Below, piece after piece: positions 13,012-64,000 of a DNA stretch of 64,000 nucleotides; within the stretch, counting starts at the first letter, position 1; each line of letters opens with the position of its first letter. A model generated the notes under the pieces. The model was not told the DNA's origin and did not search any database. It saw only the letters and a program-made list of their open reading frames with translations. The stretch spans positions 1 through 64,000 of the forward strand of contig CAVUGN010000005.1 of NCBI GenBank assembly GCA_963741095.1, read 5' to 3'. Position numbers and translations under genes: made by a program. The DNA comes from an uncultured Candidatus Micrarchaeota archaeon (lineage in GTDB: Archaea; Micrarchaeota; Micrarchaeia; Micrarchaeales; Micrarchaeaceae).

Positions 13012-14058
13012 TTACTGAGTCCCCTGCCTTTTTGCGGCCTTCTCCAGCAGTTCCCGCATCTCCTTTGTTTTGGCGTAGTCGATTGCCTTCAACCCTTTGT
13101 TATTTTTTATACCCACCTTCGCGCCACCATTTACCAGTGTCTTTATGATTGCGTTATGCTTCTCCATCGCAGCCGCAAGCAGCGCCGTGTTGCCATCCTT
13201 ATCCTGAAAGTTAGGGTTGGCTCCATAGTCAATCAACTTCTTTACAATCTCGTTCGAACCACCCCACGAGGCGTACATCAGCGGGGTGTTGCCGCTGGCG
13301 TTGTTCCTTATATTTGTATCCGCGCCGTAGTTCAACAGCACTACGACCGCATCGCCTGCTCCGGCAGACGATGCCCTAATCAGCGCGGTGTCGCCGTTCT
13401 CGTCCCGCTCATCCACATTGGCGCCGTGTGTCATCAGCGTGTCCGCGATAAGGTAGTGGTTGTAGAAGGCCGCCCACATCAAAGCAGTATCGCCCTTGTC
13501 TGACTGCACGTTCACATCGCCACCGGCACGTATCAGCATCTCAACAATCTCAGTGTTGCCTTGCGCAGAAGCTAACATGATCGCGTTCGAGCCTATGCGG
13601 CTTACCTCATTGGGGCTTGCCCCGTAGTCCAGCAGCACTTTGACGACCTCCTTGCAATCATTTTTCGAGGCCCACATGAGGGCAGTCCAGCCGGGTTCTT
13701 CCTTTGTTTCGAGCTGAGCGCCGCTTTTCAGAAGCAGGTCGACAACCCCTTTGTAGCCAGCTGCCGATGCGGCAATCAGTGCCGTCCTGCCCGTGTCATC
13801 ACACATGTTGACGTCCACGCCGTAGGATATGAGCGTTCCGATCCTGTCCAGGTCAACCGCGCCTATCTTGCCCGATTCTGCAACCAATTCGCGCCCCAAC
13901 GAATCCAGCATTGCCTTGTCGAAAACGGGGGTTCCCAGATCCTTGATCCTTTTGCCAATATCGTTGCAGGGATTGGATTCGGCCTGCCGGACGAACGCCT
14001 TTATCGCATCCGCTCTGTCAGTCGTCATCTTTCCGCTCTTGTTTGCGCTATTTTCCAT
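13012..14058 (-). CDS. Ankyrin repeat protein
   Basis: Multiple GxTAL/TPL..A...G repeats; leader GKMTTDRADAIKAFVRQ. Confidence 0.95.
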   Translation of the reverse strand: MENSANKSGKMTTDRADAIKAFVRQAESNPCNDIGKRIKDLGTPVFDKAMLDSLGRELVAESGKIGAVDLDRIGTLISYGVDVNMCDDTGRTALIAASAAGYKGVVDLLLKSGAQLETKEEPGWTALMWASKNDCKEVVKVLLDYGASPNEVSRIGSNAIMLASAQGNTEIVEMLIRAGGDVNVQSDKGDTALMWAAFYNHYLIADTLMTHGANVDERDENGDTALIRASSAGAGDAVVVLLNYGADTNIRNNASGNTPLMYASWGGSNEIVKKLIDYGANPNFQDKDGNTALLAAAMEKHNAIIKTLVNGGAKVGIKNNKGLKAIDYAKTKEMRELLEKAAKRQGTQ

Positions 14059-15429
14059 CCTCCTCAAACCTAGCGGCCCGCTTTATCTGTATCTTTATAT
14101 TCTTGTTGTCCGTGCAATCCATGGCTGTCTTGCCTTCGTCGTTCTTGCAGTCTAGGTCCACACGCCAGCTCAGCAGTGTCTCAACCGCGTCCCCGTGATT
14201 GTTCGCGGCTGCACGCATCAGTGCAGTGCAGCCGTCCTTGCCTCTGAAGTTTCCGTCGGCGCCAGACCGCATCAACAACTCCACGATGATCGCGTTGCCC
14301 TTCTCCGCAGCCACGATAAGCGGTGTTTTGCCTTCTACACTCTTGTGGTTCAAATCGACTGCATGGGTTTTCAGCAGCATCTCTGCAATCTCGAAGCTGT
14401 CGACCTCGGCTGCGAACATCAGCGCGGTCTCACCATGGTTGATCTGGATGTCCGGTTTGGCTCCTCTATCGATTAGAATCTTGGCAATCTCGCTGCCACC
14501 AGCTATTGCAGCGCAGATCAGCGCAGTGCAGCCTTGATCGTCCTGCAGGTTCACGTCTGCACCGTTGTCCAGCATCAGCTTGACAACCCCTTTGTAGCCA
14601 GCTGCCGATGCGGCAATCAGTGCCGTCCTGCCCGTGTCATCACACATGTTGACGTCCACGCCGTAGGATATGAGCGTTCCGATCCTGTCCAGGTCAACCG
14701 CGCCTATCTTGCCCGATTCTGCAACCAATTCGCGCCCCAACGAATCCAGCATTGCCTTGTCGAAAACGGGGGTTCCCAGATCCTTGATCCTTTTGCCAAT
14801 ATCGTTGCAGGGATTGGATTCGGCCTGCCGGACGAACGCCTTTATCGCATCCGCTCTGTCAGTCGTCATCTTTCCGCTCTTGTTTGCGCTATTTTCCATC
14901 CTCCTCAAACCTAGCGGCCCGCTTTATCTGTATCTTTATATTCTTGTTGTCCGTGCAATCCATGGCTGTCTTGCCTTCGTCGTTCTTGCAGTCTAGGTCC
15001 ACACGCCAGCTCAGCAGTGTCTCAACCGCGTCCCCGTGATTGTTCGCGGCTGCACGCATCAGTGCAGTGCAGCCGTCCTTGCCTCTGAAGTTTCCGTCGG
15101 CGCCAGACCGCATCAACAACTCCACGATGATCGCGTTGCCCTTCTCCGCAGCCACGATAAGCGGTGTTTTGCCTTCTACACTCTTGTGGTTCAAATCGAC
15201 TGCATGGGTTTTCAGCAGCATCTCTGCAATCTCGAAGCTGTCGACCTCGGCTGCGAACATCAGCGCGGTCTCACCATGGTTGATCTGGATGTCCGGTTTG
15301 GCTCCTCTATCGATTAGAATCTTGGCAATCTCGCTGCCACCAGCTATTGCAGCGCAGATCAGCGCAGTGCAGCCTTGATCGTCCTGCAGGTTCACGTCTG
15401 CACCGTTGTCCAGCATCAGCTTGACAACC
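13741..15429. repeat. 841-bp tandem duplication
   Basis: 13741-14588 matches 14582-15429; GACAACC at 13741, 14582 and 15423. Confidence 0.95.
14048..14899 (-). CDS. Chimeric ankyrin repeat protein
   Basis: N-half identical to the 13012 gene, C-half identical to the 14889 gene. Confidence 0.85.
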   Translation of the reverse strand: MENSANKSGKMTTDRADAIKAFVRQAESNPCNDIGKRIKDLGTPVFDKAMLDSLGRELVAESGKIGAVDLDRIGTLISYGVDVNMCDDTGRTALIAASAAGYKGVVKLMLDNGADVNLQDDQGCTALICAAIAGGSEIAKILIDRGAKPDIQINHGETALMFAAEVDSFEIAEMLLKTHAVDLNHKSVEGKTPLIVAAEKGNAIIVELLMRSGADGNFRGKDGCTALMRAAANNHGDAVETLLSWRVDLDCKNDEGKTAMDCTDNKNIKIQIKRAARFEEDGK

Positions 15430-15830
15430 TCGGTGTATTTCCGCAACGAAGCCATCGTCAGCGCCTTGATCCCGCGCTCGTTCTGCACGTTCAAGTCCGC
15501 GCCGCTCTTCAGTAGCAGTTCGGCGATCTCCAGATTGCCGCTGACGCAAGCGTAGATCAGCGAGGTGTTTCCCTCCGGATCCCTCGCGTTCAGATCCGCC
15601 CCGTTGCTTATCAGCTCCTTCACCCTGAAGAGGTTTGGATGCTCCAGCTTCGATTCCTCGATTATCATTGCCCCGTATTTTAATGCATGATCTTTGTCCA
15701 CTGTGCCCAGTCGGGCCGCTTCCCTGTTTATCGCATCGCCTGGCGCCGAGTCGACCTGTCGGATGAACGCCCTGATCGCGTCCGCCTTGTCGATCGTCAT
15801 TCTGCCGTTCTGGTTCGAATTGATCTCCAT
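14889..15830 (-). CDS. Ankyrin repeat protein
   Basis: Ankyrin repeats; leader GRMTIDKADAIRAFIRQ. Confidence 0.95.
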   Translation of the reverse strand: MEINSNQNGRMTIDKADAIRAFIRQVDSAPGDAINREAARLGTVDKDHALKYGAMIIEESKLEHPNLFRVKELISNGADLNARDPEGNTSLIYACVSGNLEIAELLLKSGADLNVQNERGIKALTMASLRKYTEVVKLMLDNGADVNLQDDQGCTALICAAIAGGSEIAKILIDRGAKPDIQINHGETALMFAAEVDSFEIAEMLLKTHAVDLNHKSVEGKTPLIVAAEKGNAIIVELLMRSGADGNFRGKDGCTALMRAAANNHGDAVETLLSWRVDLDCKNDEGKTAMDCTDNKNIKIQIKRAARFEEDGK

Positions 15831-15831
15831 C

Positions 15832-16755
15832 TCACCTAACCTTTGATGCTTTTCTCAGCATTCTCTTTATGTTTTCATTATCGGTGCATTTCATCGCATT
15901 GTAGCCGTACCTGTCCTTCATTCCCTTTTTGGCGCCGTTGTCCAACAGCAGGCGTACGATATCCTCGAATCCACCCTCCGCAGCACGCATCAGCGCAGTC
16001 TTTTCTTCCCAGTCCCTGAGGTTCACCTCGGCACCTTTGTTCAGCAGCGCCGCAACGGCATCTTTTTCGCCGGTGCGTGAAGCCTCTATCAGCGGCGTGG
16101 AGCGATGGCTGGCATCCGCGTTCACCGATGCACCGCGATCCATCAGCATCTTCATGATAATCTTGTTGCCGTGATGCGATGCTGCCATTAGTGCGGTCAT
16201 GCCGTCGACGTCCGTGATCTCGATGTCCGCGCCTTTCTCCAGCATCGCTTCGACAATCTCTGCGTAGCCCTTTTCTGCGGCCAAAACCAGCGGAGGAATT
16301 TCCCTTTTGGTTTTTATGTTGGCGTCCGCATCGTGACTCATCAATATCCTGACCACGTCGATTTTGTTGTCTCCGGTGGCCCACATGAGCGCCGTCCTGC
16401 CGCTGTTGTCTTTCAGGTTCACGTCGGCGCCGTTGTCGATCAGAAGCTTGACTAGTTTATCATTGCCCTTTTTCGAAGCACCCATCAGCGCAGTCCACCC
16501 GAACGTGTTCTGGGCATTCAGATTGGCGCCTTTGACTATCAGCATTTCGATTGTTCCGATGTCTGCGTCATCTTTCCAGGCTGCCTTGACCATGTCAGCC
16601 CCTCTTGTCGCAGCCATTTCTTCACTGACCCTTGCCACTATGAGTCTCTTGTTGGTTGCATCGCTCAGCGCAGGTTCGGTATCCCTGACGAACGCCTTCA
16701 GAACGTCCAACCTGTTAAGGGTCATCCTTCCGTCTTTTTGTACGCTATCGCCCAT
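15832..16755 (-). CDS. Ankyrin repeat protein
   Basis: Ankyrin repeats; leader GRMTLNRLDVLKAFVRD. Confidence 0.95.
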   Translation of the reverse strand: MGDSVQKDGRMTLNRLDVLKAFVRDTEPALSDATNKRLIVARVSEEMAATRGADMVKAAWKDDADIGTIEMLIVKGANLNAQNTFGWTALMGASKKGNDKLVKLLIDNGADVNLKDNSGRTALMWATGDNKIDVVRILMSHDADANIKTKREIPPLVLAAEKGYAEIVEAMLEKGADIEITDVDGMTALMAASHHGNKIIMKMLMDRGASVNADASHRSTPLIEASRTGEKDAVAALLNKGAEVNLRDWEEKTALMRAAEGGFEDIVRLLLDNGAKKGMKDRYGYNAMKCTDNENIKRMLRKASKVR

Positions 16756-16783
16756 CAAAAAGCCTTAATATAGACGCAGTTGA

Positions 16784-16823
16784 GGAGATATTTATGCCCT
16801 GTTTTTGAGTTCGTCTATTGACG
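16784..16823 (-). promoter_or_regulatory. Conserved 40-bp promoter module (ankyrin operon)
   Basis: CGTCAATAGACG-AACTCAAAAACAGGG-CATAAATATCTCC. Confidence 0.85.
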
Positions 16824-16881
16824 TCTAGTGGGATTTTCTGTGCGCACTTAGGAAAGGCGTTATTTGGAAAAAGCGTTACTT

Positions 16882-17229
16882 TCAGGTAGGGTTCATCTGG
16901 TTCCTTTCCAGGTTCAGGATCTTGTAATCAAAAAAGAGTGTCTTCTCGCTCGCTATCTTGAACTTCTTTGACGGCCCTTCGCCGTACTGGATGAGGAAGT
17001 CGCTGGATTGCCCGCTGACCAAGCTTCCGTTCGCCATTACCTTTGGGTCCACGTAGAACTGCTTGTCCATCCTCACCGCATAGACCTTCTCGTCGGTCTT
17101 GCAGTCTATGGCCAGGTACCTGGCAGCCTGCTCGGGCAAAAACAATCGGTCCTTATCGGACATCCGCGGCGCGAATGTCGGGGATATGTCGACATTGCTG
17201 ACATTGACCGCTTTGTCCTTCGTCACCAT
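16882..17229 (-). CDS. Hypothetical protein
   Basis: 115 aa; CATAAATATCTCC box upstream. Confidence 0.7.
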   Translation of the reverse strand: MVTKDKAVNVSNVDISPTFAPRMSDKDRLFLPEQAARYLAIDCKTDEKVYAVRMDKQFYVDPKVMANGSLVSGQSSDFLIQYGEGPSKKFKIASEKTLFFDYKILNLERNQMNPT

Positions 17230-17314
17230 TGGATCACGTTAGGAACAATTCATTCGAGGAGATATTTATGCCTTGCTCTCTGCTTTTTTCGGTCAAAGGA
17301 TCAGGGAATTCCAG

Positions 17315-17575
17315 TTACTTCGGCTTGTCGGCCTTGGACGGCAGCATGTACTGCTTTATCTTCCCGTAGAGCACGAAGGTCACGCCGTTGTTCCTCTGTG
17401 CCACATCCTTGAGGTGGTTCTTGTAGAACTCGAGCGCCTCCCTGTTGCCCTTCTCTATCTCGCGCTTGTACACGCCGCACACGCTGCAGGTGTGCGGTTT
17501 CTTCTCCTCGGAGGTTTTTCTGTCGAATATCTTGATTATCACTTTCTTCGAATCCGGGTCGAGTATGCGCGCCAT
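17315..17575 (-). CDS. Small hypothetical protein (HxCxxC)
   Basis: 86 aa; motif promoter at 17661-17700. Confidence 0.6.
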   Translation of the reverse strand: MARILDPDSKKVIIKIFDRKTSEEKKPHTCSVCGVYKREIEKGNREALEFYKNHLKDVAQRNNGVTFVLYGKIKQYMLPSKADKPK

Positions 17576-17794
17576 ATCAACAGCTTTTCATCTTGCAATA
17601 AACATCCTGTTTGCCTTTCAGCCGTCTCAATCGCTCCTGTGCAGTATAAGGTACGCTTCATGAGATACTTATAGCTTCTATCCTAGTCCGTCAAGTGTCG
17701 ATAAATCCGGCAGGATCGATGTGCTCTCCTGACCGCTCCACGCAAAGCTATTTATGAATAAACAGCCCTTTCCTCTCAAGCGAGTGATGGTTTC

Positions 17795-18475
17795 ATGGAT
17801 TATCTGGACGGAGTTGCTGTAGTCGACCTGGAGGCCACTAGCCTCAACACGAGGAAGGGAGCGATAGCATCGATAGGCATGGTGACGTTCAGGAACGGCG
17901 AGCTCAGGAGGTATTACCGCGTCTTCAGGCCGTTCAAAGGAGCGAGGATAGACAAATCCGCGCTCGCAGTCTGCGGCTTCACGCTGAAGGAATTGAATAA
18001 GAGGTGCGACTGCAGCGGCGGGGAAGAGAATTGCAGTGTTCCCGAGCACGCGCACTCGCCCGAGAAAGTGTGTCTCTACGTGTCAAAATTCATGCGCGAG
18101 AACCGCTGCCACACGATAGCCGGGCAGAACCCCGCCTTCGATACGGGCTATCTGCACGCGTACTTCGAGAGATACAAGAAATTCGATTTCATCTCGCACA
18201 GGACCATAGATCTGCATTCCATAGGTTACGGGCAGCTCGCCGCAAAGGGCATGAGGGTGCCGACCGACATGGTGAGGGATGGCAGGATATCCTACGTGCG
18301 GAACGATTTCTCAGCGACAAAATTGTACCACATGATCGGCATGCCCACCGAACCGAAGCCGCACAACGCGTTGACCGGTGCGGTGTTCGAGTTCGAGGCC
18401 CTGTGCAGGCTGGTGTACAAGAAGCCGGTGCTGGAGGAGTTCCAGAAGTATTCGCTTGGATCGGATGGCCTGTAA
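17795..18475 (+). CDS. DEDDh 3'-5' exonuclease
   Basis: VVDLEATSL, GQNPAFD, IDLHS, HNAL motifs. Confidence 0.9.
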   Translation: MDYLDGVAVVDLEATSLNTRKGAIASIGMVTFRNGELRRYYRVFRPFKGARIDKSALAVCGFTLKELNKRCDCSGGEENCSVPEHAHSPEKVCLYVSKFMRENRCHTIAGQNPAFDTGYLHAYFERYKKFDFISHRTIDLHSIGYGQLAAKGMRVPTDMVRDGRISYVRNDFSATKLYHMIGMPTEPKPHNALTGAVFEFEALCRLVYKKPVLEEFQKYSLGSDGL

Positions 18476-18501
18476 GATGTCTTGTTTTAAGAGGTCTAAA
18501 A

Positions 18502-18541
18502 CGTCAATAGGCGAAGTTGAGGATAGCTTATAAGTATCTCC
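18502..18541 (+). promoter_or_regulatory. Conserved 40-bp promoter module
   Basis: CGTCAATAGGCG-AAGTTGAGGATAGCT-TATAAGTATCTCC. Confidence 0.85.
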
Positions 18542-18641
18542 TGGACCGCTATCAATAGTGCGATAGAATAACAGCGTCAGAAAGCGCAGCAACAAATACT
18601 GACAGGTGCTCTGACAGAACCGATCAAGGGCAAACGATGAG

Positions 18642-19292
18642 ATGGAGGGCAACTTTAACAACAGCGGAAAAATGACCACTGAGAGAGCGGACGCGATAAA
18701 GACGTTCCTCCGGAACGTTGAGACAACGCCCGGGTATGCTGCTGATCTGAGGACGAGAGTAGGAAACTACTCGAACATGTTCGATGGCCGCATACCGCAG
18801 ATCACGGACAACGAACTCGCGGCGTTGTATGGAAGGATAAAACCGGTGGTCAGGGGAGTTACCATCAGAGAGGATTGCGCCGCAGAAAAGCTCGATGAAT
18901 TTATCGGCAGGTGGGCCAAAGAGAGCAGTATCGAGGGGCCTGCGCTGGATGCATTGAAGAATGAAGCGCCACAAACACTGTTTTGGATAAAGGATGTGGA
19001 TCCCAGGCAGATAAATTTCATGAGTTCGCCGATGCCCGCAGGCATTGCCTCTGGATTGAAGAGGATAGGCATCATCACGACGTACCACGAACCGAATTAC
19101 TCCGCATGGGGCCACAGGCTTTTTGCGCCGTCGGTTGCTGAAGTGCTTTCGCAGATCCCGGAAGTTCTCCGGGGCATAGTGTCCGCTTTTGAAACGCAGC
19201 GCATGTTCGAGCAGGATGATAAGAGGTACCTAAAAGCGGAAACGGCCGTGTACGTCTTGGAGGATGGAGTTGTAAAGAAGCTGCTGGATTAA
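18642..19292 (+). CDS. Non-ankyrin hypothetical protein carrying the ankyrin-family leader
   Basis: SGKMTTERADAIKTFLRN followed by an unrelated domain. Confidence 0.8.
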   Translation: MEGNFNNSGKMTTERADAIKTFLRNVETTPGYAADLRTRVGNYSNMFDGRIPQITDNELAALYGRIKPVVRGVTIREDCAAEKLDEFIGRWAKESSIEGPALDALKNEAPQTLFWIKDVDPRQINFMSSPMPAGIASGLKRIGIITTYHEPNYSAWGHRLFAPSVAEVLSQIPEVLRGIVSAFETQRMFEQDDKRYLKAETAVYVLEDGVVKKLLD

Positions 19293-19300
19293 GCAACCTT

Positions 19301-20344: not shown

Positions 20345-20347
20345 TTC

Positions 20348-20659
20348 TTAAAATTCGACGAAGATGTCGTCCCCGACGATCGAGGTCTTGTAGGTCGGTT
20401 CGTCCGGGAGCTCGACAGAGAACTCGACAAGCTTGCCGGTCTTGATGTCCCACTTCGACCCGTGCCAAGGGCACGTTATCACGCTGCCTTCGAGCTTTCC
20501 CTTGCCCAGCGGCCCGCCCCGGTGGTTGCACACGCCGCGCATGGCGTAGATCTTACCTTTTACATTAGCAATCGCGACGTCATCCCTTCCGTCGACCTTG
20601 ACCTGCCTAAGAGTCCCGTCAGGCATCTCAGAAAGCTTGGCGACCTTTACGCTCACCAT
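20348..20659 (-). CDS. Rieske-type ferredoxin
   Basis: CNHRG...CPWHG. Confidence 0.92.
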   Translation of the reverse strand: MVSVKVAKLSEMPDGTLRQVKVDGRDDVAIANVKGKIYAMRGVCNHRGGPLGKGKLEGSVITCPWHGSKWDIKTGKLVEFSVELPDEPTYKTSIVGDDIFVEF

Positions 20660-20703
20660 GCATACCTTAGATATTGAGTTGGAAAGGTATATATTTGCGA
20701 TGC

Positions 20704-29447: not shown

Positions 29448-29448
29448 G

Positions 29449-52169: not shown

Positions 52170-52272
52170 GGGATCACATGCGGCTTTCTGCTGTTGCTCT
52201 CGCTTGCCTTCGCTAACCCTTTTGTTGACAAATTTCCACCCAGTCTGTTTGCACCCACTTAATATGATCTGA

Positions 52273-52464
52273 TTAACTCCTTGGATTGGCGTCTATCGTT
52301 ACCTGTATGCTACCTACGGAAAACCGCATCATGTCCGATATGTAGCCGCCAATCTCGCTCTCCCTGCAGTACGCCTTGCCCTCAACGCTGTTTGTGCAAA
52401 CATGCACGAGAACGCGCCTATCATCCATCGAAAAAATCTTTTTTATCCTTGCACTTGCGCCCAT
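52273..52464 (-). CDS. 63-aa hypothetical protein (paralog of 58357)
   Basis: Frame conserved in both copies; GGTGG SD-like sequence. Confidence 0.75.
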   Translation of the reverse strand: MGASARIKKIFSMDDRRVLVHVCTNSVEGKAYCRESEIGGYISDMMRFSVGSIQVTIDANPRS

Positions 52465-52583
52465 TCTACCACCCTATTGATCATGAGGGTAGGGGGTTGT
52501 ACCGCGGAAGCATGGTGAGAATGTGGATGAAGAGCTTGCGCTGATCCATGAAAAATTCTTACTTCCACCCCTGTACAACCTAC
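52465..52583 (-). ncRNA. Putative structured 5' leader RNA, copy 1
   Basis: Long hairpin capped AGC-GCAA-GCT; near-identical copy at 58549-58665. Confidence 0.55.
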
Positions 52584-52769
52584 ACACCCGTATGATATTA
52601 TGAATGAGGTTGTATATATTTATGAGCTGAACGTGTGCAACTTTTTGACCAGTCAATGCTTTAAAGATTTATAATTTATTAGTCCTTTAATTAAATTTAT
52701 ATGTGTTATAAAAGTTATATATACTTATTATAGTAAGGTTTAAATATCTTAAAAGTGTTAATATAACAC

Positions 52770-54275: not shown

Positions 54276-54302
54276 TTAGCCGCTTGATCCTCCATCTCCC
54301 AT
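54276..54302 (-). CDS. Micro-ORF MGDGGSSG
   Basis: GTGAGATT-ATG; TTTTTAAG ~30 bp upstream. Confidence 0.5.
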   Translation of the reverse strand: MGDGGSSG

Positions 54303-54428
54303 AATCTCACTGTTCAAACATCTCTGAAAAAGCTTAAAAAGCTTGTGTTCTGGGAACAGCGATTGCTGTTTGGCAGCGCTTTCGCGCTGCAGGAACAGTG
54401 CCGATGCAGGTTAAACTGAAGAAAAGAG

Positions 54429-55220
54429 TTAACCTATCAGCAAACCTTCTATCCTTACCTGGTAGCCGTCCTTTATCTTGTTCATGAAGTTCACCAGGCC
54501 GCTGTGCCTCCATTGGAGCATGCACCTTCTCGGAAGGAACCAATATCTCATGCCGATCTTAAGGTCCATCCTCGAGTCGCGGATTATGCCTTCATAGGCT
54601 TCCGCTATGTAGTAGCCGATGTCCTTGTAGCCCTGGGCTCTTGGCTGCAATGGGCCAGTGACGCACCAGACTATCACTCCCGTCTTGTAGTCAGCCTCCA
54701 TGACAACGCCGCAGTGCGTTATCGGGCAGCCGCATGACATGCCCAACGGCCTTCCAATCATTATGTCTCCCTTCTTTATCCCCATCTTTTCAGTAAGGGC
54801 AGGGTTGTGCGGAAGTATCGTCTCCCTCGGGCCCGGCTCACCCGGGAATGTCTCAAGAACAAAGTCGAACTCACGTGATAGAGTGTCCTTCCAGTTCTTG
54901 CTGTCAGTGCCTATCGCAGCAGACGCGCAGCCTGCGCATCCCGCTGTCGCAACCGTAGCCTCGTTGACCGGCCTTCCTATGACATCGGTCCTAGGCTGGC
55001 CATAAGCTGTCTGGGTCATTCTCTGCTGCGGAGCTGCGCTCGCGACCTTAGGCGCAGACGCACTGTTCCTGCCCAGGTTCGTGCACCTCTTCATCTCGTC
55101 CGCATTGCTTGCGGCCGCTTCTGCCAGATCGCTGCACGACTTGTATCCGCATGCGCCGCAATCAAGCTTGGGCAGCTGTTCCAGTATCTTATCGCTCTCT
55201 TTTGTTGTCTTTTTTGCCAT
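54429..55220 (-). CDS. (Fe-S)-binding protein, copy 1
   Basis: LPKLDCGACGYKSC; protein identical to 60602-61393. Confidence 0.9.
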   Translation of the reverse strand: MAKKTTKESDKILEQLPKLDCGACGYKSCSDLAEAAASNADEMKRCTNLGRNSASAPKVASAAPQQRMTQTAYGQPRTDVIGRPVNEATVATAGCAGCASAAIGTDSKNWKDTLSREFDFVLETFPGEPGPRETILPHNPALTEKMGIKKGDIMIGRPLGMSCGCPITHCGVVMEADYKTGVIVWCVTGPLQPRAQGYKDIGYYIAEAYEGIIRDSRMDLKIGMRYWFLPRRCMLQWRHSGLVNFMNKIKDGYQVRIEGLLIG

Positions 55221-55229
55221 TCGATCACT

Positions 55230-55313
55230 TCATTCTCCTTGATAGAATATGTCGCTGTTGAGCGGCCTCACAACACCGAAGTGCTGCTTCCAGCCAATCT
55301 CCTTCTTGCCCAC
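55230..55313 (-). pseudogene. 3' fragment of the GTP-binding protein gene (duplicated)
   Basis: VGKKEIGWKQHFGVVRPLNSDIFYQGE equals the C-terminus of the 61403 gene. Confidence 0.85.
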
Positions 55314-56154: not shown

Positions 56155-58005
56155 TCATGGTAACAATATGACCGGTTCGCCAAGTGTTGCACGCAGGAAA
56201 TTGATTATCGATTGTATCTCCGACTTTTTTTGCTGGACATAATTTGTAGCTGCAGTCTGGTTTCCTTCGAGCATTTGCACAAAATTCCGCATTGAAGAAG
56301 CCAAACCAGGGATGATGACAGGTATTGGGATGGGTATGCCTCCAGATCCGTCTTCGGCAACCAAATCACCGACTAAACCGCTGATATCCCCCTTTGTGAC
56401 TATGCTTATTCCTGTGCTTAGGTCGCCTAGCCAGTTTGAAAGTTCCCCTAAGGCTCCTGCAGTATCACTGCCGTCTAGGAGCTTTGATAAAGCATCGAGT
56501 ATTCCGGAAGTCGCTGCAGCCGCATTGCCAAGTTGATCCGTCAATGCTGATGCGTTGATTGGATTTGTGGGCAGAGTGTATTGCAGTGTAATGGGTATTG
56601 AATTGATGGTAATTGTTTGGGATACGGGATGACTGATCAAATAAGGGGGCTGAGTTATAGTAAGGCCGCTACCTATGATAAGAGCAAGAGTTGGATTGCT
56701 TGTTAGATAGTTATTGGATTTTATCGCCGAGCACTGCGCCGCTGTCAGTGCTTTAATCTCCGGGGTTATCGGCCTTGTTATTCCACTATCTACTCTTGCG
56801 GTTCTGAATAGCACGTAGTTCCAATTGTCCATCTGTGTTTCTGAGGTAAGATACGGTGTCGTGAACCCTGCAGCTGCAAAATTGTACGATGATGGACCTT
56901 GCCAGCCTAACCAAGCAGGCTTACTCGCCGTAGACGCACTAACGCCCATGCCCAAGTCATCCAGCAAATCTACCTCTAATACTTGAGTTGAAGTCTGGAT
57001 TGGAGTGGTGGTTGGAGTTTGGGTAGGTGTTGTAGTCGTAGTAGTGGTTGTTCGTATTGGTGTCGTAGTTGAAGTAGGTGTCGGTATTACAGTCGAATAA
57101 TTTCCAGATTTTATCGCCGAGCACTGCGCCGCAGTCAGAGCCTGTATCTCAGCAGTTACCGGTCTTGTGACTCCGCTGTCAACTCTTGCTGTTCTGAAGA
57201 GCACGAAGTTCCAGTTGTCCATCTGAGTTTCCGTTGTTAGGTAGGGGGTTACGAATCCTGCGGCTGCAAAATTGTACACTGCAGGTCCCTGCCAGCCCTG
57301 ATAGCCGTATATCGTCTTCGCTCCAGACGGAGTCACATCACTGATGCCCAGATCGCCGGGCAGGTTTATTGGCGGTATCGTAGTTGGAGTTACTGTCGTT
57401 GTGGTGGGTGTTGGGGTCGTTGTGGTTGGCGTTGGAGTTGGCGTAGTCGTTGTCGTGGTTGGAACTATCGGGGCCGTGTACGGCACCTGAGAGACGTTGC
57501 CACCAACTTGAATGTACCCATTGCTCAATGCAGTGATGGTGTCCGTGTTATTCAGAATTCCGTTTACGTAAACGTTCGCATAACACAGGATGGTGCCTTG
57601 GGTTTGGTTTGCTGGAACTCCTGCCGATTGCATCTTCGACATTATGTCGCTTATCAGCTGGTTTATGCTTTCCCCTGTATTTGCCATGATCACCGATACG
57701 GTCGGTATATTATCGACCTGGCTTACCAGTCTAAGGTATGAATGCTGATTATCCTCCATCATCTCGTATTTTGCCGCGGTTGCTTGTTTTGGATTGGTGG
57801 TTATACTTTCGGCTTCCACCCTGCCGATGCCTGGGCTTATTGCCAGGACAGTTGCCAATACTACAGGCAACACCATATTTCTGGCTATGGATAGACCCCT
57901 ATTCAATGGATTTGCCTGGTGCCTTTCTGCTGCATCTTGCCCTCTCAGCAATTCCACGTTTGCTGTCTTTTCAGTTGCCTTTTCGATTGTCTTTTCGTTT
58001 CGCAT
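56155..58005 (-). CDS. Thr-rich repeat-domain surface protein (paralog of 49716)
   Basis: Same MRNEKTIEK leader; two WQGP..ETQMDNWN domains. Confidence 0.88.
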   Translation of the reverse strand: MRNEKTIEKATEKTANVELLRGQDAAERHQANPLNRGLSIARNMVLPVVLATVLAISPGIGRVEAESITTNPKQATAAKYEMMEDNQHSYLRLVSQVDNIPTVSVIMANTGESINQLISDIMSKMQSAGVPANQTQGTILCYANVYVNGILNNTDTITALSNGYIQVGGNVSQVPYTAPIVPTTTTTTPTPTPTTTTPTPTTTTVTPTTIPPINLPGDLGISDVTPSGAKTIYGYQGWQGPAVYNFAAAGFVTPYLTTETQMDNWNFVLFRTARVDSGVTRPVTAEIQALTAAQCSAIKSGNYSTVIPTPTSTTTPIRTTTTTTTTPTQTPTTTPIQTSTQVLEVDLLDDLGMGVSASTASKPAWLGWQGPSSYNFAAAGFTTPYLTSETQMDNWNYVLFRTARVDSGITRPITPEIKALTAAQCSAIKSNNYLTSNPTLALIIGSGLTITQPPYLISHPVSQTITINSIPITLQYTLPTNPINASALTDQLGNAAAATSGILDALSKLLDGSDTAGALGELSNWLGDLSTGISIVTKGDISGLVGDLVAEDGSGGIPIPIPVIIPGLASSMRNFVQMLEGNQTAATNYVQQKKSEIQSIINFLRATLGEPVILLP

Positions 58006-58054
58006 GTTTACCCACCCATTTTAAGCATGATATTATCCCGCCATCAGCCCAATC

Positions 58055-58342
58055 TTAGACCATTGCTACGAAGGCCTTGCTGACGCCACGCAATGCCCGT
58101 TCCTTCGCGTCCTTCAGCTCGCTATTGTTCCTGTAAAACCGTATTTCGGCCACGCAGTCGCCATAGCGGTTGTAGATGGGAATGCGCTGCCTGCGCCATA
58201 TGTCCATCAGCCTCTTCGCAAAATCGCTGTTCCCGCCCTTCAGCTGCAGGAAGATCTGCCTGCACGCTTTGCCCTTGCCACTTCCGATTGCTCGCGCTAG
58301 CTTGTTTGTTGACAATTTTCCACCCAGTCTGTTTACACCCAC
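58055..58342 (-). CDS. Small basic hypothetical protein
   Basis: 95 aa; its N-terminus matches a ~31-codon ORF at the equivalent position in module 1. Confidence 0.6.
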   Translation of the reverse strand: MGVNRLGGKLSTNKLARAIGSGKGKACRQIFLQLKGGNSDFAKRLMDIWRRQRIPIYNRYGDCVAEIRFYRNNSELKDAKERALRGVSKAFVAMV

Positions 58343-58356
58343 TTAACGTGATCTGA

Positions 58357-58548
58357 TTAACTCATTGGATTCGCGTCTATCATGACATGCATACTTCCGG
58401 CTGAAAGCCTCATCATATCGGAGATGTAGCTGCCGACTTCTTTCTCCCGGCAGTAAGCTTTGCCTTCTACGCTGTTCGTGCAGACCCGAACGAGAACGCG
58501 CCCATCATCCATCGAAAAAATCTTTTTTATTCTTGCGCTTGCATCCAT
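58357..58548 (-). CDS. 63-aa hypothetical protein (paralog of 52273)
   Basis: Conserved with copy 1. Confidence 0.75.
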   Translation of the reverse strand: MDASARIKKIFSMDDGRVLVRVCTNSVEGKAYCREKEVGSYISDMMRLSAGSMHVMIDANPMS

Positions 58549-58665
58549 TCTACCACTCTATTGATCATGAGGGTAGGGGGTTGCACCGCGGAAGCATGGT
58601 GAGAATGTGGATGAAGAGCTTGCGCTGATCCATAGAAAATTCTTACTTCCACCTCTGTACACCCT
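58549..58665 (-). ncRNA. Putative structured 5' leader RNA, copy 2
   Basis: Same hairpin; one change retains pairing as G-U. Confidence 0.55.
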
Positions 58666-58847
58666 TTCCACCCAATAAGAGATTATGAATTTTATTGTAT
58701 ATATCAATGAGTAGGGTAAAATTGCACAAACGACGGCAAAATGCCAACAATAACCACAGATATTCTTAGGTTTGTTATGTTTTTACATGGGTTATAAGAT
58801 GGTGCATAACAAAAGTTTTAAATATCTTATATGTTGGTATATAACCT

Positions 58848-60269
58848 ATGGATGGTGTACCTAAGAATGTGGTAGCAACATTCAGTAAGCTAAGGAAAGA
58901 ATATTCGTTTTATACCACACTGAAGAGGATAAACGACAAATATTACTTATACCACCAATCCACCATATGGCTGAAAAACGCTAAGAAAACGAAGACAGTT
59001 TCGGAGTATCTCGGCAGGATAAGAGATGATGGTGCGTTCATAAAGAAGATGCATCTGGCAAAAAGCAACCTTGTGGATGCGGAATCTTTGATAACTGCGC
59101 ATGGCGGTGAGGTAATATGGCATGGCGATACCGACAAAGTTGCAAAACCACAAACGGAAAGACATGACTTAGCGTTTACCGAGGTGGAGAACAGGCTTCT
59201 GACTACTCTCAGTATGAACGCAAGAGCCAGCTTGGCGTTTGTGGGTCGGCAGATTGGTTTAACCCCTTCTATAACTTATAATCACGTGAAGCAATTGGAA
59301 AAGAAGTGCGGGATAAGGTACATTGCAGAGATTAACCCAGAGAAGTTAGGCTACCTCAGATTTTTTGTGATGGTAAAGTTTCGAGACAGGATACCAAACG
59401 AACTGGAACTCAAGGCCGTAATCAGCAAGAGCCCGAACGTTCAACTTGCCATGCTGACGAAAGGGAAATACGACCTTATGATTTACGTGCTAGCTACAAG
59501 TAATCTTGACATAATGAGAGTGGTCATAGACATGCGGATGGGACTTGTGGACTATCCATCTGAGTGGTACATAGTCAATTTTTATGAGCATTTCAACTTT
59601 GTGCCGTTGAGGGATGAATTCATAGACGTCCTGAAGGCAAACCTCCTAAATCGAGAGTATTCCGTTTTGAAAGAGCTGAATCAAAGTGGGAACAAAGATT
59701 TTGTTGACATAGATCGAAAATATGGCTTCGATGAGGGTAGATCATCTTACACTTTTTACAGGCTCAAAGAAAAGGGGATAATCGATAGAGTGACGGTGAC
59801 TTTGAGCAATACTGTTGTTAAGTACGTTGGGGTGATATTTTTGAACATCATAGACCGGAAGAAATTCGGGAAAAACAGAGAAAAACTTCTGTCATACACT
59901 ATAAGAGAAAAAGACGCTCCGACGATGAATTATGTGCTTGCTGGGGATGACGGAAACCCGGACGGCATACTTTACTTCGTACCTGTGCTGAATGAAGGTG
60001 ATCTCGAAAGGGAAGCTGAGGGTATGGAAAAGCTGGATTTGGGTGCTAAATTTGATACGGCAATAGTATTGAATACACTGTTGGGTTCATTTTGTTATAG
60101 GAAATTCGATTATGTGTACTCAAAGCAACATATGCGACTTGTCGAGGATTATGGATTGCCGCAAAAAGATCAAAAAAACTATGAAGACACTGGAAGAAAG
60201 TCCTGTCACATCGCAACTGGCAAAAGACGCATCGGCATAAGAGGAGAAGAAATCAGAATAGATAACTAA
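58848..60269 (+). CDS. Large Lrp/AsnC-like regulator (paralog of 52770)
   Basis: Colinear motifs SMNARAS, GKYDL, FNFVPLRDEF. Confidence 0.85.
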   Translation: MDGVPKNVVATFSKLRKEYSFYTTLKRINDKYYLYHQSTIWLKNAKKTKTVSEYLGRIRDDGAFIKKMHLAKSNLVDAESLITAHGGEVIWHGDTDKVAKPQTERHDLAFTEVENRLLTTLSMNARASLAFVGRQIGLTPSITYNHVKQLEKKCGIRYIAEINPEKLGYLRFFVMVKFRDRIPNELELKAVISKSPNVQLAMLTKGKYDLMIYVLATSNLDIMRVVIDMRMGLVDYPSEWYIVNFYEHFNFVPLRDEFIDVLKANLLNREYSVLKELNQSGNKDFVDIDRKYGFDEGRSSYTFYRLKEKGIIDRVTVTLSNTVVKYVGVIFLNIIDRKKFGKNREKLLSYTIREKDAPTMNYVLAGDDGNPDGILYFVPVLNEGDLEREAEGMEKLDLGAKFDTAIVLNTLLGSFCYRKFDYVYSKQHMRLVEDYGLPQKDQKNYEDTGRKSCHIATGKRRIGIRGEEIRIDN

Positions 60270-60316
60270 TAAGAATAGCTAGTGCTTAACCTGAACAGAT
60301 GTTCTATCAAACCGAC

Positions 60317-60476
60317 TTAACCGCCGTTTCCTCCTCCATCCATAGTCTCACTATTAAAGCATCTCTGAAAAGGCTTAAATAGATTGTGTTCAGCCAGTTC
60401 CACCTCCATCCATTGTTTCATCTTCTAGATTGCATTAGCCGTTACCGCCGCCACCGCTTCCTCCATCTCCTTCCAT
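60317..60476 (-). other. Three micro-ORFs: MEGDGGSGGGGNG (60435-60476), MDGGGTG (60390-60413), MDGGGNGG (60317-60343)
   Basis: Each preceded by (G/A)TGA(G/A)AC(T/A); two TTTAAG boxes. Confidence 0.5.
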
Positions 60477-60601
60477 AGTCTCACTGTTCAAACATCTCTG
60501 AGAAGACTTAAAAAGTTTGTGTTTTAAGGACAGAGTTGCTGTTTGGCAGCGCTTTCGCGCTGCAGGAATAGTGCTGATGTAGGTTAAACTAAATAAAAGA
60601 A

Positions 60602-61393
60602 TTAACCTATCAGCAATCCTTCTATCCTTACCTGGTAGCCGTCCTTTATCTTGTTCATGAAGTTCACCAGGCCGCTGTGCCTCCATTGGAGCATGCACCT
60701 CCTCGGAAGGAACCAATATCTCATGCCTATCTTCAGGTCCATCCTTGAGTCGCGGATTATCCCTTCATATGCTTCCGCTATGTAGTAGCCGATGTCCTTG
60801 TAGCCCTGCGCCCTTGGCTGCAACGGACCTGTGACGCACCAGACTATCACTCCCGTCTTGTAGTCGGCTTCCATCACAACGCCGCAGTGCGTTATCGGGC
60901 AGCCGCATGACATGCCCAACGGCCTTCCAATCATTATGTCTCCCTTCTTTATCCCCATCTTTTCAGTAAGGGCAGGGTTGTGCGGAAGTATCGTCTCCCT
61001 CGGGCCCGGCTCACCCGGGAATGTCTCAAGAACAAAGTCGAACTCACGTGATAGAGTGTCCTTCCAGTTCTTGCTGTCAGTGCCTATCGCAGCAGACGCG
61101 CAGCCTGCGCATCCCGCTGTCGCAACCGTAGCCTCGTTGACCGGCCTTCCTATGACATCGGTCCTAGGCTGGCCATAAGCTGTCTGGGTCATTCTCTGCT
61201 GCGGAGCTGCGCTCGCGACCTTAGGCGCAGACGCACTGTTCCTGCCCAGGTTCGTGCACCTCTTCATCTCGTCCGCATTGCTTGCGGCCGCTTCTGCCAG
61301 ATCGCTGCACGACTTGTATCCGCATGCGCCGCAATCAAGCTTGGGCAGCTGTTCCAGTATCTTATCGCTCTCTTTTGTTGTCTTTTTTGCCAT
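60602..61393 (-). CDS. (Fe-S)-binding protein, copy 2
   Basis: CxxCxxxxC FeS domain; third gene of the operon. Confidence 0.92.
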   Translation of the reverse strand: MAKKTTKESDKILEQLPKLDCGACGYKSCSDLAEAAASNADEMKRCTNLGRNSASAPKVASAAPQQRMTQTAYGQPRTDVIGRPVNEATVATAGCAGCASAAIGTDSKNWKDTLSREFDFVLETFPGEPGPRETILPHNPALTEKMGIKKGDIMIGRPLGMSCGCPITHCGVVMEADYKTGVIVWCVTGPLQPRAQGYKDIGYYIAEAYEGIIRDSRMDLKIGMRYWFLPRRCMLQWRHSGLVNFMNKIKDGYQVRIEGLLIG

Positions 61394-61402
61394 TCGATCA
61401 CT

Positions 61403-62104
61403 TCATTCTCCTTGATAGAATATGTCGCTGTTGAGCGGCCTCACAACACCGAAGTGCTGCTTCCAGCCTATCTCCTTCTTGCCCACGCATATGGTGCATG
61501 TTCCTACCGGCGGGTTGCCCCTCAAGAAGAGCGGGAACTTGATGTCATTCGACTTCTCTATCTTGTTCACCAGCGGCTCTATGCCTATGCCGTACAAGGC
61601 GTTAGTCTCGAAGACGTGCGAATCCTTCGCAGCGTCCATTATCCTTGCCCTGAAGACCTCTCTTTCTGCCTGCGATATCATGTCTATCTTTGTTACCACG
61701 ACCATGTCCGCGAGCGAGAGCATCGGACCCACCTTGTTCGGCAGGTTCGCTCCGCTTGTCGCTTCCAACACGACCATGCCCAAAGATGATTCCACATAAG
61801 GCGAGCATCTCAGGCACAGCCCAGCCGTTTCTATGAAAAGCATCTCTGCGCCCTCCTTTGCCGCCCATTCTATCGCGTCCCCTATGACCATCACGTTGCA
61901 GTGATCGGGGCAAAGTTCACCAGAGTAGACCTTCTTCGTGGGTATGTTGAACTCCTTCGCGAATATCTCGTCCTCATCGGCGTACTGCACGTCGATCTTG
62001 ACGTATGCCATCTTCGTGCCCTTCTCTGCAAACTTCTTGACTATCCTTCTCAACACGGTCGTCTTGCCGGTTGTGGGCGGACCCGCGCATATAACCATTT
62101 TCAT
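61403..62104 (-). CDS. HypB/UreG-like GTP-binding protein
   Basis: GPPTTGKT, LCPDHC, ETAGLC, TKID. Confidence 0.9.
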   Translation of the reverse strand: MKMVICAGPPTTGKTTVLRRIVKKFAEKGTKMAYVKIDVQYADEDEIFAKEFNIPTKKVYSGELCPDHCNVMVIGDAIEWAAKEGAEMLFIETAGLCLRCSPYVESSLGMVVLEATSGANLPNKVGPMLSLADMVVVTKIDMISQAEREVFRARIMDAAKDSHVFETNALYGIGIEPLVNKIEKSNDIKFPLFLRGNPPVGTCTICVGKKEIGWKQHFGVVRPLNSDIFYQGE

Positions 62105-62115
62105 CTTATCACCAA

Positions 62116-62913
62116 TCAAATATACCCTAAGGCTTCAAGCCTTTCCTCGATCATGTGCTTCTTTATCGTCTCTCCGTTCCTGATCCTGTCACGGAAGTGC
62201 GATATGACGTCGTCGAGCTTCCTCAGCTCCTCTGCGACCTGCTTCTCCTCGGCTTCCGGCATTATCAGCTTCTGCATTGCGCCGTTCTGCATGACTATCC
62301 TGTAATCGGACAGCAGCGCAATCCTCGGATCATGCGTGACGAAGATGAATATCTTCTTATAGTTCTTGAGCAGCTGCAGCGCCTTCGTCCTGTTTATGCC
62401 GGCGTTCTCTATCTCGTCAAGCAGTATTATCGGGGAATTGCCTATGATCACGGCATCCGCGATCAGCAAGGCTCTAGTCTGCCCCCCAGACAGCTCGGTC
62501 ATGGAGTTGTCCATGTCCAGCGGCTCTCCTGTTAGCTGGTTGGCGAACTCCACAGTTTCCTTGACAACCTCCTTGCTGTCGGATCTTCTTATCTTGGCGT
62601 GTATCTCCAGGAACTTCTTCACTGGAAGGTCTGAAAGGAAGTTTGTGTGCTGCGATATCAACGCCATCGGGTTCTTGTATGGGTCAGAACGCAGCTCTTC
62701 CGGAGGTATCGCTCCGTTGATCAATATCTTTCTCTTCGAAGGCGTGTTCTGGTTCGCGAAGAGCTCTATGTCGTTTATGAAGGTAGTCTTTCCGCAGCCG
62801 GTGGGGCCGACTATGCTCACTATGTCGCCCATCTTCATGTTCACCTCTGTTATGGGCTCCTTTTTCCCGTCCTTTCCGGTACCCCCCATTATCGTGAGTT
62901 TTTTTATCTCCAT
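62116..62913 (-). CDS. ABC-type ATPase (no TM partner in the operon)
   Basis: GPTGCGKT, LSGGQ, LLDE, VTHD; start MEIKK. Confidence 0.92.
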   Translation of the reverse strand: MEIKKLTIMGGTGKDGKKEPITEVNMKMGDIVSIVGPTGCGKTTFINDIELFANQNTPSKRKILINGAIPPEELRSDPYKNPMALISQHTNFLSDLPVKKFLEIHAKIRRSDSKEVVKETVEFANQLTGEPLDMDNSMTELSGGQTRALLIADAVIIGNSPIILLDEIENAGINRTKALQLLKNYKKIFIFVTHDPRIALLSDYRIVMQNGAMQKLIMPEAEEKQVAEELRKLDDVISHFRDRIRNGETIKKHMIEERLEALGYI

Positions 62914-63066
62914 TCCATAGCACCTTTTCCCATTATGTATGTAGTTTAATGTTATAACATTAAGATATAAATAGGTTTGTCTTGCGGCTTGTGGGATACG
63001 TTGGAAAACGTAGATGGACGGCTGCCATAAATATTTGGCAAGCGTAAATGAATCTAGGCGTACTGC

Positions 63067-64000
63067 ATGAGCGAGGAGAAAGGGGCGCAGAAAGCAAATG
63101 ACGGGAGGATGACTTCCGACAGAGCGGACGCGATGAGGGCGTTCGTCAGGCAGGCAGATGGCCAGTCGGGCACAGAGATAAAAAAGCAGACTACGGAACT
63201 GAACAATTTTATAAGGAGGGTCGGTCCCCCCATAAAGAAAAGTGGTGTGGACGAGGAGGAGGCAAGGGAGCTTGGAAGGAAACTCGTCGGGGAATTGAAC
63301 AGAACGAATTATGACGGGATAATGATTGATGCGAATCTGAATAATGTCAGGGATCTGGTACGTGACGGAGCGAAAATATATTCGGAGGCACTGCGTATGG
63401 CTATGGCACATGAACAGGTAGACATTGTCAAATTTCTCATAGAAAATGGAGCGGATGTCAACTGTGGATGGGATAGGGGAGCGACGCCGTTGATGTACGC
63501 TGTACGCGAAGGCAATAAGGAGATTGTCGAACTATTGCTGAACGCAGGCGCGGACATGAATGCCATGGATCGCGAAGGCACAACTGCGCTGATGTCGGCG
63601 TCGTCGAGGGGCTACGCGGATATTGTTGACCTGTTGGTACAAAGGGGCGCCGACGTGGATGTGATTGGTTTTATGGGCAGAAAGGCGGTGAATTTTGCTA
63701 GGGATAACGTCATAAGGCAGATGCTCGAAGGGAAACCGTTTGTTCCAGGAACAAAAGTTGAGACAGTAAAGGAAGTGGATGCTGCAGAGGCGAAGATGTT
63801 GGGTGTGCAGCTGCTTGAGGAAACGATTGAAAGAAAGACCGACTTTGGCAAGGTCAAAGAGTTGATAGATAACGGAGCGGATGTGGACATGAGAGATAAG
63901 AATGGCCTGACGCCGCTGATGTACGCTTCGTTTGGCGGCGACGTCGAAGTTGTTGATTACCTGCTGCGCTGCGGTGCTTACGCGGGATTGCGGGATAACG
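63067..64000 (+). CDS. Ankyrin repeat protein (runs off the window; absent from the ORF track)
   Basis: MSEEKGAQKANDGRMTSDRADAMRAFVRQ...GATPLMYA..GTTALMSA..GLTPLMYA. Confidence 0.92.
   Translation, partial: MSEEKGAQKANDGRMTSDRADAMRAFVRQADGQSGTEIKKQTTELNNFIRRVGPPIKKSGVDEEEARELGRKLVGELNRTNYDGIMIDANLNNVRDLVRDGAKIYSEALRMAMAHEQVDIVKFLIENGADVNCGWDRGATPLMYAVREGNKEIVELLLNAGADMNAMDREGTTALMSASSRGYADIVDLLVQRGADVDVIGFMGRKAVNFARDNVIRQMLEGKPFVPGTKVETVKEVDAAEAKMLGVQLLEETIERKTDFGKVKELIDNGADVDMRDKNGLTPLMYASFGGDVEVVDYLLRCGAYAGLRDN

Follow-up and report, generated by a model that had tools for sequence, protein, structure and literature searches.

What does a short peptide do that stands at the head of six predicted proteins in one archaeal genome, when five of these proteins carry ankyrin repeats and the sixth does not? 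The question is raised by a stretch of 64,000 nucleotides (hereafter the window) at the start of a 207-kb contig (CAVUGN010000005.1) from a soil metagenome-assembled genome of a Candidatus Micrarchaeota archaeon, a member of the DPANN (G000; 1.08 Mb in 11 contigs, 52% guanine plus cytosine (GC), 94%-complete). Its nearest RpoA' relatives in public genomes all bear the label Candidatus Micrarchaeota, in agreement with the DPANN affiliation guessed in the sequence-only reading. A sequence-only reading of the window had described six open reading frames (ORFs), starting at 14058, 14899, 15830 and 16755 on the minus strand and at 18642 and 63067 on the plus strand, and had taken their common N-terminal leader for a candidate export signal. 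All six ORFs were found at these starts, together with the six peptides quoted for them. The span from 13012 to 64000, which had been presented as one feature, is filled mostly by housekeeping genes, e.g., those for archaeal RNA polymerase subunits (genes for Hef and archaeal STT3 also lie in the window). We tentatively favor the reading of the leader as a modular docking tag that would be read by one common partner.

The leader and the proteins that carry it

The motif ME..AN..G[KR]MT..R.[DE]A[IL][KR]AF[VI]RQ heads all six of the named window ORFs, and the full consensus of the 25-residue leader reads ME.[SN]AN.[DN]G[KR]MT..R.[DE]A[IL][KR]AF[VI]RQ.[DE]G. When the entire genome was queried, 12 ORFs fitted the strict pattern. 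A profile built from these 12, a check that had been suggested for the motif, was run against 13,560 six-frame ORFs and retrieved 34 of them at E<=1e-3, with diverse cargo behind the leader (best E 2.9e-19). The same 34 ORFs were returned by a second profile made from 33 leaders, which matched none of the 13,560 reversed ORFs used as a control (best E 2.0), and an independent whole-genome leader search likewise ended at 34. The motif is always N-terminal in these ORFs, with an onset 4-23 residues after the start codon. The 34 genes are distributed over 12 loci on six contigs and form the largest paralogous group of the genome, occupying 2.26% of its DNA and approximately 3% of its genes (a share that rests on a total of 1,175 genes from our own crude ORF calling). 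The second-largest group has 30 members and includes giant ORFs of 2,400-2,970 codons (e.g., C1:118411-127311 and C2:11163-18389; C numbers denote contigs, C5 being that of the window).

Pfam ankyrin models (Ank, Ank_2 and related) matched 25 of the 34 carriers above cut-offs, including the five window proteins that had been described as ankyrin proteins, and they matched none of the other nine. One of these nine is a frameshifted ankyrin gene, which leaves 26 ankyrin and eight non-ankyrin carriers. All eight non-ankyrin carriers have intact reading frames of 98-226 codons and differing cargos, and no match to them was found in Pfam even at E<=1, nor in PHROGs, PADLOC or NCBIfam. Among them is the protein encoded at 18642, correctly singled out beforehand as lacking ankyrin repeats. 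It had no match in Pfam (at E<=1), PHROGs, PADLOC or NCBIfam and no usable match in Atlas, and the sole relative of its cargo among 5.8 billion clustered proteins is a 99%-identical variant. Two other cargos were also found without the leader: that of C9:108723 has five leaderless paralogues in the genome, and that of C4:72705 has one, in addition to a leaderless homologue in a genome of the same genus (G001). Since the leader heads ankyrin and non-ankyrin proteins alike, and two of its cargo types are also found leaderless, it is a modular add-on, joined to its cargo by a variable linker, and in this the sequence-only reading is borne out.

The C9:108723 family has six members (C9:108723-109364, C2:150262-150861, C4:84427-85143, C5:180498-181205, C9:104488-105294, and C9:114916-115491), one of which carries the leader, and shares the motifs F.PDGKPNPEWKVFYG and KDLDF..KE...W.KGYG. 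An AlphaFold2 model of the C9:108723 protein, with a mean predicted local distance difference test (pLDDT) score of 63, gave no Foldseek match in the PDB at E<=0.001.

Genome-wide, all ankyrin matches lie in leader genes, except for the frameshifted copy and a single fusion of ankyrin repeats to an AAA+ ATPase (572 residues; C7:3168-4883, minus strand), which is the only ankyrin protein without a leader. When this fusion was compared with 40 relatives, only its ATPase part was matched, in proteins of ~500 residues, and no fused counterpart was found. A ~500-residue ATPase paralogue in G000 itself has a TPR-like N-terminal part, according to our own reading of its sequence. Among the carriers, the ankyrin repeats are most variable at the canonical target-binding positions, which suggests that these proteins may form a library of binders with different targets.

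Conservation is concentrated in the leader. The 25 leader residues have a mean pairwise identity of 51%, compared with 19% for the 30 residues that follow, and the remainder of the proteins shows 38% by best local alignment, an upward-biased figure. Synonymous codons vary at conserved leader residues (four at T12, and five each at R15 and R24, where both CGN and AGR are used), which points to selection acting at the protein level on the leader peptide.

Structure prediction gave a helical leader without confident packing against its cargo. Based on a 24-row family alignment, AlphaFold2 placed a helix at residues 13-28 of a 180-residue ankyrin member with pLDDT 42-56, compared with 95-98 for the ankyrin stack, and a low-confidence linker followed by a separate, well-predicted capping helix was placed between leader and stack. 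For a non-ankyrin member, the leader (residues 1-42) stayed below pLDDT 50, again with a helix at 13-26. As modeled, the leader helix thus shows no confident contact with ankyrin or non-ankyrin cargo, including the repeats, for which this check had been proposed. The amphipathic helix of the sequence-only reading was recovered as a helix, but one that is only moderately amphipathic (mean hydrophobic moment 0.33, mean hydrophobicity -0.10). The net charge of the leader is 0 to +3 in 33 of the 34 carriers and -1 in one. A two-copy complex prediction from a 36-residue leader alignment scored 0.02 against a mark of 0.42 and is uninformative either way.

Like signal peptides of the Sec, twin-arginine translocation (Tat) and class III (type IV pilin-like) types, the leader is N-terminal and has a positive residue beside a glycine, but it lacks a cleavage-site pattern. 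The absence of a hydrophobic core and of a twin-arginine motif, both noted earlier, was confirmed. Specifically, no hydrophobic 12-residue Kyte-Doolittle window indicative of a Sec signal was present within the first 41 residues in 33 of the 34 carriers (in the remaining one, the leader is fused to a membrane protein), and the aligned leaders contain neither the RR nor the hydrophobic stretch of a Tat signal. Nor does the leader resemble a class III signal, as the helix that follows G-[KR] is charged and moderately amphipathic. No meaningful match to the leader was obtained from Pfam at E<=10 or from a profile search of all PDB sequences. A ribbon-helix-helix domain was also considered and rejected, given that the match to ParD was not significant (E=0.32) and the alternating hydrophobic strand is missing.

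Because the leader is not predicted to fold onto its cargo, we infer that it is an exposed docking peptide for one partner. A short polar N-terminal cap (ME.[SN]AN.[DN]G) would lead into an N-capped, moderately amphipathic helix of ~14 residues ([KR]MT..R.[DE]A[IL][KR]AF[VI]RQ.[DE]G), and a poorly conserved linker of 20-40 residues would tether the leader to whichever domain follows. In this manner approximately 3% of the proteins, i.e., a diversified library of ankyrin binders and eight orphan proteins, would be given one fate.

Distribution of the leader and comparison with relatives

The leader profile found no member in 40 relatives of the same order, including G001 (84% complete, 140 contigs), nor in 400 further genomes sampled across the phylum; this absence applies to the genomes that were searched, and G001 is fragmented. 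When each prokaryotic species, represented by one genome, was scanned for the peptide RADAIKAF, 127 pattern matches were obtained, none of them related. A degenerate DNA pattern of the leader, which recovers 24 sites in the home genome with its 34 leader genes, produced 10 metagenome and two viral matches, none of which is a leader by translation. Likewise, a word-index protein search with a consensus-like leader returned two fragments of the gene from which the query was taken and nothing else. When 1.84 billion representative proteins were searched exhaustively with HMMER, 37 matches were obtained: 27 are at least 95% identical to ORFs of this same genome, a further six come from unrelated proteins that contain a look-alike loop-helix repeat internally, and the remaining four (P0018, P0021, P0029, and P0031) are true members of foreign origin, only 40-45% identical to the nearest G000 paralogue. 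Three of these foreign members are ankyrin proteins and one is not. A full-text literature search turned up no paper on such a leader among archaeal ankyrin proteins.

The six look-alikes (P0032-P0036 and P0038), which are the only non-family matches among the 1.84 billion proteins, carry the motif G-[KR]-[ML]-[TS]-x-[ED]-R... and, from the look of the matches, we take them to be peptidoglycan-binding, helicase-associated, and DUF2680-like repeats. At the sequence level these repeats have the same turn and N-capped helix as the leader, but they are internal to larger folded domains and no Pfam model of them matches the leader. The likeness is probably local and convergent.

About half of the 40 relatives have some ankyrin proteins and four of them have expansions. 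No shared leader was present in those that were inspected. In one relative (G019), tandem ankyrin proteins (C2:266932-270210 of that genome) start at the repeat cap (MFRNYLNEKL...) and end in a conserved C-terminal tail of ~45 residues.

Synteny with G001 was compared at three loci, and a fourth locus could not be resolved. A single G001 contig joins window positions 20635-19300, 18450-17333, and 9112-8558 with gaps of 27 and 42 bp. Therefore, G000 has an extra 849 bp, containing the 18642 gene and its promoter, and an extra 8.2 kb, containing a four-gene leader array. A seven-gene array on the same contig as the window lies in a 7.4-kb stretch (C5:92375-99805) that corresponds to 10 bp in G001, and a three-gene array on C9 is replaced in G001 by a different gene of 253 residues. 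The G000-specific stretches also hold genes for nucleoside 2-deoxyribosyltransferase-like and ChaN/Tiki-like proteins. An origin from mobile elements was rejected, as no repeats and no integrase were found at the borders of these stretches and the GC content of the family (52.4%) is that of the genome (52.1%).

The G001 gene at the site of the C9 array (C103:25200-26600, ORF 262-1023, plus strand) encodes two copies of the C4:72705 cargo domain. Its product starts with MGTKANQNE..., which resembles the first eight residues of the leader without the helix, a likeness that may reflect chance or a precursor.

Arrays, promoters and recombination in the window

The features of the window are collected in Table 1. 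Leader genes are tightly packed: 19 of the 34 start between -11 and +39 nt from the preceding family gene, and 13 of these 19 share an identical TGA-G-ATG junction. This junction is seen in gene 2 of the four-gene operon, which starts 1 nt past the stop of the preceding gene. The ankyrin proteins end in conserved basic residues (...KGK/RGK-stop) that are encoded by AGG/GGN codons 5-12 nt ahead of the next ATG (e.g., at 14889-14908 and 15830-15835), and these codons may at the same time provide a ribosome-binding site for the gene that follows in the array.

A TATA-like box precedes the first gene of an array. The promoter module that the sequence-only reading had assigned to all three window loci is this box, ATAARTAT. 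It is present in 150 copies in the genome and is therefore an ordinary promoter element. A 12-nt extended form, ATAARTATCTCC, is enriched before leader arrays (five of its 12 genome copies), and it is found ahead of 16755 and 18642 but not ahead of 63067.

Each ~0.86-kb unit of the tandem duplication covers a gene-to-gene junction together with the 3' part of the ankyrin gene before it and the leader end of the gene after it. The chimeric gene 3 is identical to gene 4 in its 5' part and to gene 2 in its 3' part. The leaders at 14058 and 14899 had been listed as separate instances; they are identical because of this duplication and do not represent independent copies. Public DNA coverage of the region came from four soil-metagenome runs of one study, with fragmentary contigs at least 99% identical to it, none of which extends across the whole array. 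One such contig over 13741-14574 has a depth of 8.6 compared with ~4.7 in the flanks, i.e., about twofold.

Between its promoter box and the 18642 gene, we read from the sequence a relic of the 3' end of an ankyrin gene (...KGKR-stop-G-ATG). The 63067 gene extends beyond the window and encodes 333 aa in the contig. Elsewhere in the genome (C6:36811-37925), a leader-ankyrin gene broken by a frameshift has a GTG-started gene behind it. This second gene joins a truncated leader directly to a membrane protein and looks like a recent fusion.

Away from the leader genes, an RnfB-like iron-sulfur protein gene of the window lies in a 1.03-kb segment duplicated at 96.5% identity, 6 kb apart (54288-55313 and 60459-61486; also 52221-52626 versus 58305-58711). 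Lrp-type regulator genes, which belong to a 12-member family, adjoin both copies.

Table 1. Leader genes, promoter boxes and G000-specific stretches in the window
Feature	Position	Strand	Details and basis
Gene 1 of four-gene operon: leader, linker and ankyrin repeats, 307 aa	15832..16755	-	leader codons 16681-16755; Pfam Ank, leader profile
Gene 2: leader and ankyrin repeats, 313 aa	14889..15830	-	leader codons 15756-15830; ORF, Pfam, leader profile
Gene 3: chimera from tandem duplication, 283 aa	14048..14899	-	leader codons 14825-14899; ORF, Pfam
Gene 4: leader and ankyrin repeats, 348 aa	13012..14058	-	leader codons 13984-14058; ORF, Pfam, leader profile
Tandem ~0.86-kb unit, two copies, period 841 nt, 99.5% identical	13729..15429		copies 13729-14588 and 14570-15429
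18642 gene: leader, linker and 190-aa non-ankyrin cargo	18642..19292	+	leader codons 18642-18716; ORF
63067 gene: leader (four extra N-terminal residues) and ankyrin repeats	63067..64000	+	leader codons 63067-63153; ORF, Pfam
TATA-like box ATAAATAT, extended form ATAAATATCTCC	16788..16795	-	~37 nt ahead of the start codon of gene 1
TATA-like box ATAAGTAT, extended form ATAAGTATCTCC	18530..18537	+	112 nt ahead of 18642
TATA-like box ATAAATAT, not the extended form	63027..63034	+	~40 nt ahead of 63067
8.2-kb stretch with four-gene array and ~7 other ORFs, absent at syntenic G001 site	9113..17332		alignment to G001
849-bp stretch (promoter and 18642 gene), absent at syntenic G001 site	18451..19299		G001 flanking genes 27 bp apart

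Readings of the leader

Several observations weigh against a docking tag. Recent unequal recombination is evident in the window (tandem copies, chimeric gene), and relics of ankyrin 3' ends lie ahead of the apparent first genes 18642, C5:166934, and C6:35836, so that the fusions of leader and cargo could be accidents. In one carrier, the leader helix is truncated and the cargo is a membrane protein, for which several transmembrane helices are predicted. Within the leader, G9 is encoded by GGA in 25 of 33 cases and A18 by GCG in 23 of 26, far from the usage of the genome, so shared descent or gene conversion adds to its conservation. The low pLDDT of the leader indicates that packing is not confident, and it is not proof of disorder. 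A search of public runs for the region listed no RNA run as containing it. Neither a partner or receptor nor any transport machinery came to light, and no gene recurs beside the 12 loci. Of what had been proposed earlier, the modularity of the leader is supported, while export, translocation or a chaperone role found no computed support. Only one of the species searched has the family, which makes evidence from co-occurrence impossible. Finally, an intracellular role fits the same data as export.

The most serious alternative, which we consider possible although less probable than the tag, is that the leader is inherited without any targeting role. The promoter, the start region, and the first ~25 codons would be the conserved head of a young, duplicating family, kept for expression, translational coupling or stability and acting as a homology patch for unequal crossing-over. 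The non-ankyrin carriers would then have arisen incidentally, when deletions or recombination joined this head to neighboring genes. The tight junctions in the arrays, the duplication that makes a chimeric gene in the window, the ankyrin relics, the codon bias at G9 and A18, and the frameshifted copy that adjoins the membrane-protein fusion with its truncated helix all agree with this account. So does the absence of arrays at three syntenic G001 sites, which suggests that they are young or unstable, and the paralogues of G019, with a conserved tail and not a conserved head, illustrate that recent duplication alone can give shared termini. On the other hand, the difference in identity between leader and linker and the varied synonymous codons argue that the peptide itself is under selection. 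The intact frames of the eight non-ankyrin carriers also speak against a mere inherited head, as do the four foreign members, which keep the leader despite their low overall identity, in one case on a non-ankyrin protein.

We regard as unlikely a second alternative in which the carriers stay in the cytoplasm as binders or immunity-like proteins that neutralize or hold foreign or host proteins. The leader would then be a handle for a shared internal process, such as the gathering of the carriers at a hub or their turnover through an AAA+ unfoldase. In the part of Zhang et al. 2012 (PMC3482391) drawn on here, ankyrin figures as an immunity fold, and both polyimmunity loci and ankyrin immunity proteins (Imm-ank) are described. 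Like the polyimmunity loci described there, the leader arrays are tandem, co-directional, and tight to the point of being near-polycistronic, combine paralogous (here, ankyrin) with unrelated small cytoplasmic proteins, and differ in content between close relatives, in our case G000 and the same-genus G001. The lack of a signal peptide or membrane segment in 33 of the 34 carriers agrees with this alternative. The species-specific ankyrin-AAA+ fusion on C7, with no fused counterpart in 40 relatives, would also fit, although its link to the leader, e.g., as a receptor, is a guess whose sole basis is that both are specific to G000. Against it, the leader family occupies 12 loci, whereas organisms usually have one polyimmunity locus, and a shared N-terminal leader is not among the features of immunity proteins described in that part of the same source (Zhang et al. 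2012, PMC3482391). Moreover, no toxin genes or recombinases were recognized beside the arrays, and PADLOC gave only generic ankyrin-region matches in the carriers and none in the non-ankyrin ones.

Very unlikely, in our view, is an element acting in cis on ankyrins, in which the helix would be an extra N-cap or an autoinhibitory peptide in the groove of its own or a sister ankyrin protein. Ankyrin grooves commonly bind peptides, and 26 of the 34 carriers are ankyrin proteins. However, the variable linker and the separate capping helix intervene between leader and repeats, and the predicted confidence of the leader is far below that of the repeats beside it. The leader is constant, in contrast to the hypervariable binding surfaces of the repeats. 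An ankyrin N-cap restricted to ankyrin proteins had been named in the sequence-only reading as the outcome that would speak against a portable leader; instead, the same leader occurs on eight non-ankyrin proteins, and no confident packing was predicted on the repeats or on the non-ankyrin member that was modeled.

Least credible of all is a degenerate calcium-loop or dockerin-like module that plugs into a cohesin-like scaffold: although [SN]-A-N-x-[DN]-G-[KR]-M-T-x-x-R plus helix resembles one EF-hand/dockerin loop-helix segment, its spacing (N, D/N, G, hydrophobic, T, then a helix ending in K-x-F/Y-V/L) fitting the loop-helix pattern, the acidic ligand positions 1 and 12 of the loop are taken by S/N and R, there is one segment and not two, no Pfam EF-hand or dockerin model matched the leader at E<=10, and the 94%-complete genome has no match to Dockerin_1 and none to Cohesin (PF00963) at E<=0.1.

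The docking tag has parallels in known systems. The cargo-loading peptides of bacterial microcompartments and encapsulins are short amphipathic helices read by one receptor surface. The leader is like them in its short amphipathic helix, its flexible linker, and its diverse cargo, but these peptides mark a few enzymes whereas the leader marks 34 proteins, most of them binders. The encapsulin shell protein Linocin_M18 (PF04454) has no match in the genome, and bacterial microcompartments are not known from archaea.

Polymorphic toxins and effectors also bear N-terminal modules, MIX and LXG among them. In the relevant part of Zhang et al. 2012 (PMC3482391), conserved modules at the N-terminus of such proteins are described that act in trafficking or as markers. 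As presented there, they resemble the leader in that a short module is placed on many C-terminal parts that are diversified or unrelated to each other, and in being multi-copy, recombination-prone, and variable among close relatives. The leader differs from them in its length of ~25 residues, in belonging to no known family, and in a cargo of mainly ankyrin binders and not recognized toxins; furthermore, its loci have no linked secretion genes or immunity partners.

Ankyrin effectors of Legionella, Wolbachia, Rickettsia, and Orientia are exported by type IV or type I secretion, mostly through C-terminal signals. Similar to these effectors, the leader family is a large lineage-specific expansion with variable binding surfaces in a host-dependent microbe with a small genome, but its common element is N-terminal. 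The only secretion-related machinery found in the genome consists of three generic pilus-type ATPases. We know of no effector proteins, delivery signals or effector route in DPANN archaea. The partner organism is probably another archaeon and not a eukaryote.

Within the docking-tag reading, the leading possibility, albeit a doubtful one, is that the tagged proteins would be sorted to the site of contact with another cell or handed over there, which corresponds to the delivery role proposed in the sequence-only reading. It is less likely still that the leader is the first recognizable DPANN sorting tag, by which ~34 proteins would be marked for hand-over to the host cell in the absence of a Sec, Tat or pilin-type signal.

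Should a single partner recognize the peptide, the identity of this partner would show whether the tagged proteins are dispatched to the host, gathered at the contact site or managed internally. If the reading is true, the tag would define a whole set of clients from sequence alone and, should hand-over to the host also be true, it would list all the host-directed proteins. If, on the other hand, the leader is only the inherited head of a fast-duplicating family, then the locus would remain a clear example of a reduced genome that devotes 2.3% of its DNA to a young family of genes. For the study of how DPANN archaea influence the cells on which they depend, the leader offers a concrete handle.

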